IMG/VR virus record: IMGVR_UViG_2897328257_000003
DNA from: a virus
Taxonomy: Duplodnaviria; Heunggongvirae; Uroviricota; Caudoviricetes
Length of the DNA: 64,000 nucleotides
Reading direction: 5' to 3' (one strand)
Within the stretch, counting starts at the first letter, position 1. Every line of letters begins with the position of its first letter. Shown piece after piece: positions 41,685 through 43,872 of the stretch. The position numbers and the translations under genes were made by a program. Under the pieces are notes generated by a model. The model did not search any database, had not been told where the DNA came from, and saw nothing but the letters and a program-made list of their open reading frames with translations.

Positions 41685-41932
41685 GTTAAGCATCCACAGG
41701 CTGGTATCTGCAACCGATTATAACGGATGCTTAACGTAATGCGTGAAGTATGGACATATTTTATCAATTAGTGTTTTTTGCCGTTTCATAATGTTTCAGG
41801 TTGTGCGTTATGTTTTTGATTATAAACAGATTTGTGATTTTTCTTGTTCCAGCTTGTTTCACGTTGTAGCCCTTTGTGCAACGATCGGTGTAGTTAATGG
41901 TGTAGTTAATTGTGATGACCGGATTCAAAATT

Positions 41933-43162
41933 ATGAGCAGAGCACTTAACAAACTGAGCGATACACAGCTGAGGAAAATCAACGGCACACCCGCCCAAAA
42001 AACAGCCTTTCTTAATGACGGTGGAAACCTGAGCGTCAGGCATTCAACCAGTGGCCTTTTAACCTGGTATTTCACTTACAGGGCCGGAACGGGAAGGGGG
42101 GCACCACCGGAACGCATTAAGCTGGGAAATTATCCTGATCTGAGCCTGAAATCAGCCAGGGAAAAAGCCGCCCAGTGTCGCGCATGGCTGGCAGAGGGGA
42201 AAAATCCACGTCATGAAATGAATTACACCGTACAGGAAGCGTTAAAGCCGGTAACGGTTGGCGATGCGCTCACCTACTGGCTTGAGTCGTACGCAAAGGA
42301 AAACCGTGTGGATTATGACCCACTGAAAAAGCGGCTAAATAATCACGTAATACAGCACATTGGCCCTATGCCGCTGGATAAATGCGAGCTACGGCACTGG
42401 CTGGCCTGTTTTGATCGGGTGGCAAAGAAAGCCCCTGTTTCCGCCGGGTTCCTGCTACAGACATGCAAGCAGGCGCTTAAGTTCTGCAGGAAGCGGCGCT
42501 ATGCAATCAGCAACGTTCTTGATGATATGAGTGTGGCGGACGTTGGGAAAAAACCGGATATAAGTGAGCGTGTCTTAAGTAACAAAGAACTTGGCGAATT
42601 ATTGCAGGCACTGGACAAAAAAATATTTTCCCCTTACTACGTCGCACTAATCCGCCTCCTGATTGTTTTCGGATGCCGGACAGTAGAACTGAGGTTATCG
42701 GAGATCGGCGAGTGGGATTTTACCGAAATGCTCTGGACCGTTCCGAAGGAGCACAGCAAAACGAAGGTAGCCATATTCCGGCCCATACCGGAAGCGATAC
42801 TGCCGTTCGTCACGCAGCTGGTGGAGCAGAACAGGCACACGGGCTTATTGCTGGGGGAAGTGAAACAGGAAACCAGCGTATCGCAGTACGGCAGATTAGC
42901 GCACAGGAGGCTAAAACACCCTCAATGGTCATTGCATGACATCCGGCGCACCTTTACAACCATGCTGAACGATTTAGGCGTTGATCCTCACGTCGTGGAG
43001 CAGCTTACAGGTCATCAGATGCCAGGGATGCAACGAGTCTATAACCACTCCCGTTATCTCGATGCGAAACGTGATGCGCTGGATATGTGGACGGAGCGGT
43101 TAGGAATACTGGCGGGAACACATGAAAACGTAACCACGCTACCAGTAACCAGAATAAAATAA
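41933..43162 (+). CDS. int: Tyrosine recombinase/integrase, P4-like (N-terminal arm-binding domain plus catalytic core)
   Basis: About 410 aa; C-terminal catalytic motifs (HDIRRTF...; LTGHQM...YNHSRYL) typical of phage integrases; start refined to MSRALNKL; six-frame ORF starts at 41912. Confidence 0.88.
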   Translation: MSRALNKLSDTQLRKINGTPAQKTAFLNDGGNLSVRHSTSGLLTWYFTYRAGTGRGAPPERIKLGNYPDLSLKSAREKAAQCRAWLAEGKNPRHEMNYTVQEALKPVTVGDALTYWLESYAKENRVDYDPLKKRLNNHVIQHIGPMPLDKCELRHWLACFDRVAKKAPVSAGFLLQTCKQALKFCRKRRYAISNVLDDMSVADVGKKPDISERVLSNKELGELLQALDKKIFSPYYVALIRLLIVFGCRTVELRLSEIGEWDFTEMLWTVPKEHSKTKVAIFRPIPEAILPFVTQLVEQNRHTGLLLGEVKQETSVSQYGRLAHRRLKHPQWSLHDIRRTFTTMLNDLGVDPHVVEQLTGHQMPGMQRVYNHSRYLDAKRDALDMWTERLGILAGTHENVTTLPVTRIK

Positions 43163-43388
43163 TTTTTTTCGTGTTTTTTCAGTATGCGCATACTGGATAA
43201 GTGCACAGATACAACGTGAAACAATGTGCAACAACGTGACANNNNNNNNNNNATACTGGCGGGAACACATGAAAACGTAACCACGCTACCAGTAACCAGA
43301 ATAAAATAATTTTTTTCGTGTTTTTTCAGTATGCGCATACTGGATAAGTGCACAGATACAACGTGAAACAATGTGCAACAACGTGACA
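43106..43388. other. Scaffold-join artifact: the same 136 bp (int 3' end and downstream) on both sides of an 11-N gap
   Basis: 43106-43241 is identical to 43253-43388, separated by N 43242-43252; typical of unmerged overlapping contig ends. Confidence 0.8.
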
Positions 43389-43683
43389 CAATCACGAACA
43401 AGAGGCCAAAAAGAATACAGATTTGTAAGTTACTGATTTTCAATGCTCAGCTGGTTTTTTATACATTAGTGAATTACGCGTTAAAGCGTGCGAAAAAAGG
43501 CATAAAACAAGATTTTATGCCTTTGTATTAACATGAATTTAAATGATTTTATCCTGATTATTCCTCTTTCTGTAAACCATGCGACACCAACATTTGCCAA
43601 CTCTGAATCATCCTGACACAATCAGACACATCCCAACGCAATAGAACACGAAATAACTCTTTAAGAAACGAAAGGGGGCAATA

Positions 43684-43872
43684 GTGTTAAGCACTGATCG
43701 GTTTATACGTGAAAAAGAATGCGAAAAGCTAACAGGCCTTAGCCGCTCATGCCGCTACCGCCTGGAAAAGGCCGGACAATTCCCATCACGTCGTAAACTT
43801 GGTGGGCGTTCTGTTGGCTGGTCTTTATCTGAGGTTTTGGCCTGGAAGGATAGCTGCAAGGCAGTTCACTAA
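43684..43872 (+). CDS. alpA: AlpA-family phage transcriptional regulator (excisionase-like HTH)
   Basis: 62 aa, GTG start with strong SD (aaagggggcaataGTG); pattern ...LTGLSRS..YRL...G.FP....LG.RSVGW..SEV..W resembles AlpA/Xis family proteins. Confidence 0.78.
   Translation: MLSTDRFIREKECEKLTGLSRSCRYRLEKAGQFPSRRKLGGRSVGWSLSEVLAWKDSCKAVH

Follow-up and report, generated by a model that had tools for sequence, protein, structure and literature searches.

The integrase gene of an island next to roxA is flanked by copies of the motif CAACGTG/CACGTTG. Where does this island recombine with the chromosome, and which protein, if any, reads the motif? An earlier note had placed the attachment site away from any tRNA gene, in intergenic sequence or in the 3' end of the neighbouring gene, and had regarded the motifs as candidate Int/Xis arm sites.

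In the present study, we analysed a stretch of 64,000 nucleotides from a viral sequence record (hereafter, the window). We determined the att core and the anatomy of attP, and then examined the phasing, conservation and exclusivity of the repeats around the motif and their co-variation with the integrase (Int) and AlpA proteins. We found that the heptamer is the conserved junction of the first two units (ACAAC followed by GTGRAACAA) in helically phased arrays of 10-bp direct repeats. The best explanation as a whole, to which we assign a probability of about 0.6, is that these arrays are candidate AlpA operators standing beside Int arm sites in a capsid-forming PICI (cf-PICI) at roxA-phoQ. The positions of the features are listed in Table 1.

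Table 1. Features of the island and its surroundings, numbered from the first letter of the window
Feature	Position	Strand	Remarks
roxA (ycfD)	40563-41684	-	Left chromosomal neighbour; start codon 41682-41684; 99% identical to annotated roxA of L001
attL core	41752-41766		GGACATATTT (41752-41761), identity segment of attL, attR and attB; TTTTATCA (41759-41766), C' half
P'-arm phased array	41832-41877	-	5 ACAA units, 10-12 bp apart; includes CACGTTG 41860-41866 and TACAACGTGAAACAA 41854-41868
Tandem pair GGTGTAGTTAAT GGTGTAGTTAAT	41887-41910	+	22 bp before the int ATG; putative Int arm-type sites P'1 and P'2
int	41933-43162	+	P4-type tyrosine integrase with Arm-DNA-bind_3, central and catalytic domains (Pfam); 99.3% DNA identity to the L001 integrase
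CAACGTG or complement	41021-41027, 41860-41866, 43212-43218, 43232-43238, 43359-43365, 43379-43385, 49158-49164	-, -, +, +, +, +, -
Shortened duplicate of array 3' of int	43211-43241		From contig overlap
Assembly artefact	43242-43388		11-N gap (43242-43252) and second copy of 136-bp contig overlap (43253-43388)
Array 3' of int	43358-43401	+	ACAAcgtgaaACAAtgtgcaACAAcgtgacACAAtcacgaACAA, 5 units at exactly 10 bp; holds both direct CAACGTG copies
Conserved hairpin	43496-43524		12-bp stem in the int-alpA spacer; minus-strand T-run; kept in L001, L003, L004 and L009
Degenerate array by alpA	43615-43654	+	GACACAATCA GACACATCCC AACGCAATAG AACACGAAAT; overlaps promoter-like site
alpA	43684-43872	+	62 aa; Phage_AlpA family, winged/MerR-like HTH; P4 Vis in the same family
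D5-type primase	46056-47804	+
Terminator-like hairpin	49101-49118	+	Directly adjoins the late array
Late phased array	49121-49165	-	5 units; includes 49158-49164; about 220 bp upstream of capsid gene
Packaging module	49383-55724	+	HK97-type capsid, prohead protease, portal, head completion protein, head-tail connector, HNH, TerS, TerL (Pfam, L001 annotation)
GTGAC x4 at exactly 10 bp	56134-56168	+	In the distal part of the P arm; the attR core is expected about 500 bp away; chance expectation 0.00
P-arm remainder	56169-56433		Runs to contig end; judged by L001, attR core, P-arm 12-mer pair and CACGTTG array lie about 100-250 bp beyond, outside the window

The island and its attachment site

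The island is a cf-PICI of the EcCIEDL933 type with a P4-type integrase, inserted in the published roxA(ycfD)-phoQ site. Its left end carries int, alpA, DUF4222, the D5-type primase, SSB and PerC, all on the plus strand. Int matches PF13356 (E = 5.5e-18), PF22022 (under its cut-off) and PF00589. The small helix-turn-helix gene alpA lies 521 bp downstream of int, and its product matches PF05930 (E = 5e-18) and PDB entry 8c3t, 'AlpA family' (E = 2.6e-6). Each of the expected packaging genes has a Pfam match, and no further large ORFs precede the P arm. As a cf-PICI we counted an island of about 15 kb with its own capsid-to-TerL genes and without tail or lysis genes; comparison with L001, the closest complete island, gave a size of about 14.9-15.4 kb. 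The window island is a mosaic, with a D5-type primase where L001 has a RepA helicase. Besides the gap at 43242, the assembly is interrupted at 44213 and 56434, and 56445-64000 may be another PICI, standing in tandem at this site.

The two nearest described relatives are EcCICFT073, whose Int is 94% identical, whose alpA allele is 95% identical, and which has the same att core together with the arrays and the tandem 12-mers described below, and EcCIEDL933, which has the cf-PICI packaging module as described (PMC6092414; Alqurainy et al. preprint, 10.1101/2022.09.08.507074). Helper-phage induction and transfer in small capsids with helper tails have been shown for EcCIEDL933 (10.1101/2022.09.08.507074). 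The island type, the attachment site and the exact core have thus already been published, and the architecture of the site is that of P4; in the papers searched, we found no description of phased arrays or Int arm sites of EcCICFT073 or EcCIEDL933.

The left end of the island lies 67 bp from the start codon of roxA, on its upstream side. The earlier note had proposed a comparison with the uninterrupted roxA-phoQ sequence of K-12. When we compared attL of the window and of L001, attR of L001 and the empty K-12 site (attB, GGGCATATTT), the core emerged as GGACATATTT, the final two bases of which are part of the phoQ stop codon. The site therefore lies between genes and just reaches the 3' end of phoQ, in line with what had been anticipated. 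The anticipated lack of a tRNA at the junction was also borne out: ARAGORN predicted 0 tRNA or tmRNA genes in the window, and Rfam gave nothing relevant there, its sole match being at chance level (27 bits against a gathering score of 114) and away from the junction. With no tRNA or tmRNA gene in the window and the core at the phoQ stop codon, a tRNA-targeting genomic island was rejected.

Exactly this core is given for EcCICFT073, as the attC of a PICI at 'ycfD-phoQ' (PMC6092414, Table S1). About 600 of 5426 complete E. coli genomes have an int of the window type beside roxA, and about 4824 have an uninterrupted roxA-phoQ site; occupancy was counted here for the window-type int alone. The attB sequence is GG(A/G)CATATTT; empty sites with either allele occur, so that an A in both attL and attR is uninformative on the crossover. 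The G-carrying attL of L097 and L106 suggests that the exchange took place to the right of core position 3.

Anatomy of attP and the probable sites of the integrase

A BLAST search of complete E. coli genomes with the reconstructed attP found one tandem PICI dimer (L119), and its natural P-O-P' junction confirmed the layout; a scan of viral contigs gave no match to the exact roxA-phoQ attP junction. The attP core is an 8-bp inverted repeat, TGATAAAA-GGACATA-TTTTATCA, in which inverted core-type sites surround a short overlap common to attB; the C' half is the one retained in the attL of the window. Counted from the core, the P arm contains an array (about -131 to -108), a 12-mer pair (-97 to -74) and an IHF-like sequence, AATCAATGGCTTG (about -32 to -20). 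The P' arm contains an array (+80 to +125), a 12-mer pair (+135 to +158) and the int ATG (+181). A sigma-70 promoter scan gave no match between the core and int.

In this attP, both arms contain two kinds of repeats, the tandem 12-mers and the phased arrays, and natural variants separate them. The AlpA of L004 is nearly the same (98%) and its Int N-domain is 80% identical; the 12-mers become GGTGTAGTCACT and the arrays are unchanged. In L106, a natural chimera, the Int N-domain is of the tqsA type (96%) and the central domain of the roxA type (99%); its 12-mers are GTAGTCACT, its core is that of roxA-phoQ, and the arrays are unchanged. The P'-arm array of the window recurs without change in EcCICFT073, EcCI042 and L106, though the Int N-domains differ. 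L005 and L008, in which AlpA belongs to a second group (58/63 identical), have TTGTTCG arrays; their Int N-domains are 60% identical and their 12-mers differ. In L006, both AlpA (24% identity) and Int are unrelated to those of the window, and CACCGGA repeats are found at 10-bp phasing, five in the P' arm and two just upstream of alpA. Thus, the 12-mers follow the Int N-domain and the arrays follow the AlpA allele. As the array, int and alpA are physically linked, part of this co-variation could be simple co-inheritance of a module.

The GGTGTAGTTAAT pairs occur in both arms (L001 shows the second pair, in its P arm), differ from the core and are specific to the type of N-domain. On this sequence pattern, we infer that they are Int arm-type sites. 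The integrase of P4 has the same three Pfam domains, and P4 likewise has pairs of tandem 12-bp arm repeats in both arms, one of them about 21 bp before the int start (X51522). The repeats themselves are unrelated (TGGGGGCAT in P4, GGTGTAGTTAAT in the window element), P4 has GTCC-type repeats where the window element has AACAA-type repeats, and P4 resides in a tRNA-Leu gene, whereas the window element is at an intergenic site at the phoQ stop codon. PICIs also lack a plasmid state, unlike P4 (PMC6092414). Tandem 12-mers are listed as the 'att core' of EcCIDI14 (PMC6092414, Table S1; Fillol-Salom 2018 ISME J); for some PICIs, what has been published as the 'att core' is probably a duplicated arm site and not the sequence of the crossover.

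Could the CAACGTG/TTGTTC arrays themselves be the arm-type sites of the N-terminal domain, the 'Int' half of the earlier idea? Int has an Arm-DNA-bind_3 domain, and the arrays lie in both attP arms, beside int and about 130 bp or less from the core. However, they are identical where the Int N-domains are only 80% identical, and it is the 12-mers that switch instead, in the chimera L106 as well; the annotated arm repeats of P4 also correspond to the 12-mer pairs and not to the arrays. In addition, the same arrays recur at the starts of operons, with 1.4 kb and 7.4 kb between them and the core. We judge this explanation to be distinctly unlikely.

The Int/Xis proposal was borne out in part. The P'-arm copy of the heptamer lies within attP (about +108 to +114 from the core) and a second copy lies in the P arm. 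Both are present in the L119 junction and in the circular sister element L042, and for this reason the heptamer survives the comparison with attP, where its absence would have told against it. The role of Int arm-type site would pass to the GGTGTAGTTAAT 12-mers. Copies also occur 3' of int (1.4 kb from the core) and at 49.16 kb (7.4 kb from it). Lying outside any attP, these are better explained as operators of the Xis-like AlpA than as recombination arm sites.

Phased arrays around the heptamer

Copies of the motif do lie on both sides of int, CACGTTG (41860-41866) before it and CAACGTG (43212 and 43232) after it. The positions noted earlier (43213, 43232 and 49163) were correct except for the upstream copy, which had been placed at about 41846 and was off by 14 nt. 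Counted by itself, the heptamer shows no enrichment: the window has 7 copies, where 4.82 +/- 2.26 would be expected, and a count of 7 was reached in 19 of 100 shuffles. The copy inside roxA (41021-41027) looks like a chance match. Moreover, 43106-43241 and 43253-43388 are exact 136-bp duplicates on either side of the 11-N gap, and the segment is single in L001, in the reference islands and in about 20 IMG/VR loci. Because the segment was duplicated by contig overlap, the pairs 43212/43232 and 43359/43379 are the same two sites.

A count that is not raised, one copy within roxA and two artefactual duplicates might together suggest functionless chance matches of a 7-mer. This is hardly credible for the island copies, for which it is already refuted, and holds for 41021-41027 alone. 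An exact 15-mer, TACAACGTGAAACAA, is common to both sides of int (41854-41868, minus strand; 43210-43224, plus strand) and, at up to 3 mismatches, gives 8 matches against 0.83 expected. All three island sites have ACAA at 9-11 bp spacing, with 9 pattern matches against 0.08 expected; the window has no other arrays of this kind apart from the GTGAC variant in the distal P arm, and the positions are kept in more than 20 related islands, in both arms. When the 27.6 kb of real sequence was scanned for chains of four or more copies of any 4-mer, spaced 9-11 bp, only four loci emerged, the three island sites and the GTGAC repeats; the mean in shuffled sequence was 0.1.

Across 10 distinct versions of the array, the ACAA columns are invariant and the spacers variable, and CGTG is conserved too. 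In each island, ACAACGTGRAACAA is confined to the two att arms and the segment 3' of int; cf-PICIs have it upstream of the capsid operon as well. The late array is present in the cf-PICI L001 and missing from the classical PICI L003. A further, degenerate array lies by alpA at a weak promoter-like site (consensus match only: TTGCCA at 43594-43599, a spacer of 17 bp and CACAAT at 43617-43622).

The exact 15-mer gave 104 loci in the scan of viral contigs, mostly by chance, and about 24 of them were PICIs of the same lineage; these supplied the chimera L106, the circular L042 and array variants. A scan of genome contigs with AlpA gave only 3 loci because that collection contains one genome per species. 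An invertible or transposable segment bounded by the inverted 15-mers around int was also considered. It was rejected, since the same arrays, with RDF-like phasing, recur both in the P arm and at the capsid operon.

Short phased direct repeats are also typical of replication iterons, and the GTGAC repeats (56134-56168) lie in the non-coding right end, where PICI cos sites occur (PMC6092414, supplement 2). The arrays as iterons or as packaging (cos/pac) signals nevertheless seem very improbable. They are identical in the window and in L001 in spite of the different replication modules (D5-type primase versus RepA helicase), and identical in islands with cf-PICI and with classical PICI packaging systems; positions fixed relative to the att core and the Int 12-mers are also ill-suited to an origin.

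A host protein (IHF, Fis, H-NS or a regulator of the PhoP/OmpR type), or intrinsic curvature helping the intasome to fold, is an unlikely but more serious candidate. The A/T-rich AACAA blocks at 10-bp phasing would bend in phase, intasomes need host bending proteins (PMC2951348), and the island adjoins phoPQ. The same arrays are nonetheless found in sister PICIs at tqsA, cspD-clpS and other sites, and positions outside the A-tracts (CGTG) are conserved. TGTTTC-type repeats loosely resemble PhoP boxes, but the spacing is 10 bp against the 11 bp of PhoP boxes, and a good IHF consensus, AATCAATGGCTTG, is already present separately by the core. Finally, the PICI with an unrelated AlpA has the GC-rich CACCGGA repeats at equivalent positions, which points to a reader that is encoded by the element and specific to the allele.

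AlpA as a candidate array-binding protein

By their position, phasing and co-variation, the arrays are candidate operators of AlpA, which would act as a Vis/Xis-like excision factor and as an activator. Recombination directionality factors (RDFs) bind direct repeats that are spaced by one helix turn (PMC7498355), and 10-bp arrays are found in the P' arm of the window and in the P arm of L001, L003 and L119. AlpA activates its own promoter, and its overexpression leads to int-dependent excision of EcCICFT073 (PMC6092414). The excision of EcCIMP1 (PMC11773190) and the induction of EcCIEDL933 (10.1101/2022.09.08.507074) need alpA. In the literature searched, we found no defined AlpA binding site in PICIs. 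The antiterminator AlpA of P. aeruginosa was considered as a model and rejected.

Helper-phage infection would switch on alpA. The 62-aa protein, a winged helix-turn-helix protein like Vis and Xis, would then bind the arrays cooperatively, head to tail, and bend the DNA. At attL and attR, AlpA would aid Int, placed on the 12-mers and the core, in assembling the excisive complex. At the remaining arrays it may activate transcription of the operon that encodes it and, in cf-PICIs, that of the capsid operon too.

Proteins with both functions are known, 186 Apl, P2 Cox and P4 Vis being dual RDFs and regulators (PMC7498355). Apl, lambda Xis and Cox bind helix-turn direct repeats cooperatively, head to tail, and bend DNA, and Apl has effects at promoters as well as at att (PMC7498355). 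The regulatory effect differs in sign, Apl being a repressor and PICI AlpA an activator. BldC, a 68-residue MerR-like protein, forms cooperative multimers on direct repeats (PMC5859096). The likeness of Apl, Xis, Cox and BldC to AlpA rests on operator layout, and we claim no relationship in sequence. P4 Vis itself matches PF05930, as AlpA does.

The int-attP-Vis module of P4 reportedly goes back to Pierson and Kahn in 1987 and Calì et al. in 2004. In the latter work, which PMC7498355 cites, Vis is said to regulate late promoters and also to be the excision factor that binds two boxes located between int and the core. These Vis boxes reportedly lie in the int-proximal arm; arrays of the window type lie in both arms.

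The IntS/TorI system of KplE1 (CPS-53) is similar in that int abuts attL and its promoter is inside the recombination region (Panis et al. 2010, PMC2951348), where it is overlapped by Int arm-type and RDF sites (PMC2951348). The RDF gene is transcribed separately, and excision is thus switched by RDF expression (PMC2951348). KplE1 differs in that it is integrated at a tRNA gene, argW, and in that TorI and IntS repress intS, whereas expression of the EcCICFT073 Pint reporter was unchanged by AlpA (PMC6092414). Any regulatory effect of the array in the int promoter region is therefore hypothetical.

Several observations count against AlpA. Classical RDF sites lie in one arm, which gives directionality, and here the arrays are in both. 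The array on the alpA side is degenerate and overlaps or follows the sole promoter-like match, which is odd for an activator. The sigma-70 scan gave no promoter-like match between the late array and the capsid gene, and the late array is missing from classical PICIs whose AlpA is the same.

The broadest form of the AlpA explanation, in which one AlpA is both excisionase and master activator of these Gram-negative satellites and polymerises on GTGRAACAA operators with 10-bp phasing, at the alpA promoter, 3' of int and in each att arm, with cf-PICIs having a further set at the front of the capsid/terminase operon, we hold tentatively, at somewhat less than even odds.

For the best-studied lineage of E. 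coli PICI integrases (EcCICFT073, EcCIEDL933), the present analysis adds a map of candidate protein-binding sites. The map separates Int arm sites, supported by a natural domain-swap chimera, from likely AlpA operators, and it permits testing of AlpA as the recombination directionality factor and as the driver of the cf-PICI capsid operon. If the broadest form is true, a single helper-induced switch would couple excision, autoactivation and capsid production, and the operator code (AACAA-, TTGTTCG- and CACCGGA-type) would diversify along with the AlpA alleles.

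Island and attachment site

The island starts 67 bp upstream of the roxA (ycfD) start codon, directly upstream of roxA as the earlier note had read it. Its genes are int (Arm-DNA-bind_3 and catalytic domains), alpA (PF05930), DUF4222, a D5-type primase, SSB and PerC, followed by an HK97-type capsid, prohead protease, portal, head completion protein, connector, HNH, TerS and TerL; the capsid-forming phage satellite (cf-PICI) EcCIEDL933 has the same gene set (10.1101/2022.09.08.507074). In the window copy, the genes between alpA and about 44836 are not readable because of a 623-N gap. 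The closest complete island, located between roxA and phoQ, is that of E. coli 94-3024 (L001). Among 5426 complete E. coli genomes, this int is located beside roxA in 600, and the site is uninterrupted in about 4824, with the A and G alleles both represented.

The att core was defined by aligning attL (window and 94-3024), attR (94-3024), and the empty K-12 site. The segment common to attL, attR, and attB is GGACATATTT (41752-41761; GGGCATATTT in K-12), and the phoQ stop codon includes its last two T's. This agrees with the proposal that att is intergenic or in the 3' end of the neighbouring gene rather than in a tRNA; ARAGORN detected no tRNA or tmRNA in the window, and Rfam nothing at the junction. 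As EcCICFT073 is listed with exactly this core ('ycfD-phoQ') by Fillol-Salom et al. 2018 (PMC6092414, Table S1), the att site was already known. The 'att site core' published there for EcCIDI14, CGGTGTAGTTAATGGTGTAGTTAATT, is a tandem arm-type repeat in both EcCIDI14 arms and not the crossover core, as seen from loci L009 and L006; the tandem TTTGTAGTTATACG repeats listed for yejM elements look like arm-type repeats too.

We reconstructed attP by joining the attR and attL arms of 94-3024. BLAST with this sequence revealed, in E. coli NCCP 13894 (L119, 6015-28260), a tandem of two identical PICIs flanked by roxA and phoQ, the sole case among the 5426 complete genomes; an intact P-O-P' (attP-type) junction at 17001-17121 joins them. 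The junction matches the reconstruction in the core and inverted repeat, both arrays, and both 12-mer pairs (92.6% identity overall). The exact attP junction had no match in viral contigs. L042 (IMGVR_UViG_3300045988_152974, 11,098 bp), a metagenomic sister PICI that integrates at tqsA, has a 119-bp terminal direct repeat and is circular or concatemeric; its intact attP has the same layout, each arm carrying a CACGTTG array and a 12-mer pair. The motif is present in attP both here and in the NCCP 13894 junction; its absence there is what the earlier note would have counted against its proposal.

The module order is the same in EcCICFT073, EcCI042, EcCIIHE3034, EcCI224, and EcCIDI14, and the architecture is that of the P4 attP. 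In each arm of P4 attP (X51522), 12-bp 'attP arm sequence repeats' are annotated in tandem, one of the pairs being 21 bp upstream of int; the P4 Int has the same three domains, and its Vis, like the island AlpA, is PF05930. In P4 (L117, 3966-4077) and CP4-57 (L120, 1040-1100), GTCC/TCCG repeats about 10 bp apart are found upstream of int, with the att core on one side and the tandem arm repeats on the other. This position is like that of the PICI arrays, and the repeats may be Vis/AlpA boxes.

Features of the window and of the reconstructed attP (attP positions counted from the first base of the core)
Feature	Position	Strand	Description
ACAA array, P' arm	41832-41877	-	5 units
ACAA array, 3' of int	43358-43401	+	5 units
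ACAA array, late	49121-49165	-	5 units; directly after terminator-like hairpin, ~220 bp upstream of capsid gene
Internal gap	43242-43252		11 N
Internal gap	44213-44835		623 N; inside island just past alpA
Internal gap	56434-56444		11 N
Second segment, D5-type primase	57364-59196
Second segment, capsid-like ORF	60856-61911		351 aa
Second segment, further content	56445-64000		SSB/PerC-like regions, decoration-like ORF
attP, P-arm TTGT array	-131 to -108		contains CCACGTTG
attP, P-arm 12-mer pair	-97 to -74		GGTGTAGTTAAT GGTGTAGTCAAT
attP, IHF-like	about -32 to -20		AATCAATGGCTTG
attP, core	core position		TGATAAAA-GGACATA-TTTTATCA; 8-bp inverted repeat around 7 bp
attP, P'-arm TTGT array	+80 to +125		contains the CACGTTG noticed earlier
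attP, P'-arm 12-mer pair	+135 to +158		GGTGTAGTTAAT x2
attP, int ATG	+181

Phased arrays and assembly artefacts

The heptamer CAACGTG/CACGTTG was found at 41860(-), 43212(+), 43232(+), and 49158(-), as reported earlier except that one position had been placed 14 nt off and an 11-N gap overlooked; further copies are at 41021(-), 43359(+), and 43379(+). On its two sides, that gap (43242-43252) has exact copies of one 136-bp stretch (43106-43241 = 43253-43388). As this stretch is present once in 94-3024 and about 20 related loci, the duplicate is a contig-overlap or scaffolding artefact. Both the int 3' end and the opening part of the array that follows int are doubled by it, which is why the direct copies at 43212 and 43232 recur at 43359 and 43379.

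As a bare heptamer, the motif is not above chance in the window (7 matches versus 4.82 +/- 2.26 expected), and chance still explains the copy in roxA at 41021. For the island copies, chance is excluded: all are at the 5' end of ACAA arrays with a 10-bp period, where 11-12-bp steps are confined to the array ends, and this pattern was found 9 times versus 0.08 expected. CAACGTG is the junction ACAAC/GTG of the first two array units. When 4-mers of any sequence were sought in chains of four or more at 9-11 bp, only the three ACAA loci and GTGAC x4 were found (shuffles, mean 0.1). The latter, spaced at exactly 10 bp in the non-coding right end (56134-56168, distal P arm), resembles the GTGACACAAT units of other arrays and may be an AlpA site, or cos- or ori-related.

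The exact 15-mer TACAACGTGAAACAA is common to the heptamer copies on either side of int. Within any one island, the 14-mer ACAACGTGRAACAA is restricted to the P' and P arms and the region 3' of int, with a further site ahead of the capsid operon in cf-PICIs. When ten distinct versions of the array 3' of int are compared, the spacers vary and the (A)ACAA columns hardly or not at all.

Real sequence in the window is confined to 36270-64000, with N throughout 1-36269. For its leftmost ~500 bp (36270-36762), no alignment was obtained with the potC side in two reference genomes; another insertion may begin here, since in NCCP 13894 an espK-carrying element abuts potB at the matching place. Past the third gap, 56445-64000 holds another PICI-like segment, of the classical type. 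Its similarity to the first island is only 70-98%, and its best complete-genome matches (96%) are at other chromosomal positions. This segment is either a scaffolding error or another PICI inserted in tandem at the same att site. In the int-alpA spacer (43496-43524), a perfect 12-bp-stem hairpin (AAAGGCATAAAA/TTTTATGCCTTT) is conserved in four PICI lineages. As a T-run follows on the minus strand, the hairpin could act as a terminator for transcription entering int in antisense; the sole Rfam match here was at chance level.

Proteins followed by the repeats

The earlier note had suggested the heptamers as Int/Xis arm sites. The tandem 12-mers, rather, follow the Int N-terminal domain and are candidate Int arm sites: GGTGTAGTTAAT in roxA-phoQ and cspD-clpS elements (N-domain the window's reference and 80% identical to it, respectively), GGTGTAGTCACT in tqsA elements (80%), and GTGTGGTCAGTT in EcCI224 (60%). 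The IMG/VR locus L106 (int 9208-10434, minus strand; attL ~10607) amounts to a natural domain-swap experiment. Its chimeric Int has an N-domain 96% identical to the tqsA type and a central core-binding domain 99% identical to the roxA type, and it carries GTAGTCACT 12-mers (tqsA type) yet sits at the roxA-phoQ core. Therefore, it is the arm-binding domain that the 12-mers follow, and the central domain that the core follows. None of these elements shows a change in the arrays, whose reading as Int arm sites is contradicted by L106 and by locus L004; what stands is that arrays lie in both attP arms, probably as AlpA (RDF-like) sites.

The arrays follow the AlpA allele rather than the Int N-domain. 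AlpA proteins of a first group (62 aa, 92-100% identical) go with ACAACGTGRAACAA-type arrays. Those of loci L005 and L008 (mutual identity 58/63) go with TTGTTCG-type arrays in both arms, despite only 60% identity between their Int N-domains. In EcCIATCC25922, whose AlpA and Int are unrelated, the repeats phased at 10 bp are CACCGGA, five in the P' arm and two just upstream of alpA. Such allele-specific motifs, and the conservation of non-A-tract bases, weaken the alternative that the arrays are host-factor sites or an intrinsic bend. Iterons or cos sites are a further alternative; against it, the arrays follow neither the replication nor the packaging module. As arrays and genes are linked, co-variation with AlpA may partly reflect co-inheritance. 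A genome-contig scan with AlpA gave 3 loci, and matches to the 15-mer in viral contigs were mostly chance.

Arrays as candidate AlpA operators

We infer that the phased arrays are candidate AlpA operators. Operators of recombination directionality factors (RDFs) consist of direct repeats spaced by one helix turn, on which binding is cooperative and accompanied by bending; 186 Apl, P2 Cox, and P4 Vis also serve as transcription regulators (PMC7498355). PICI AlpA is an activator of its own promoter; when overexpressed, it leads to excision that depends on int, and excision or induction requires alpA (PMC6092414, PMC11773190, 10.1101/2022.09.08.507074). In the literature searched, no definition of an AlpA binding site in PICIs was found; P. 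aeruginosa AlpA, a different and larger antiterminator, was rejected as a model.

In the proposed mechanism, alpA would be induced by a helper phage, and AlpA would nucleate on the conserved ACAACGTGRAACAA and then spread over the phased units. At attL and attR, it would bend the arms beside 12-mer-bound Int, favouring excision. Binding to the alpA-proximal array and to the one 3' of int would bring about autoactivation, and in cf-PICIs the extra array would switch on the capsid and terminase operon. Against AlpA operators, a Pint reporter in EcCICFT073 was unaffected by AlpA (PMC6092414), and arrays in both arms give no account of directionality. Sigma-70 scans located no promoter between core and int or between the late array and the capsid gene, and gave one weak match at alpA.

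The kind of island, the att site, and the attP architecture are already known, and the finding is an ordinary one. The Int arm-site assignment and the candidate AlpA operators are new detail of a known kind, and their modest value is a testable binding-site map.
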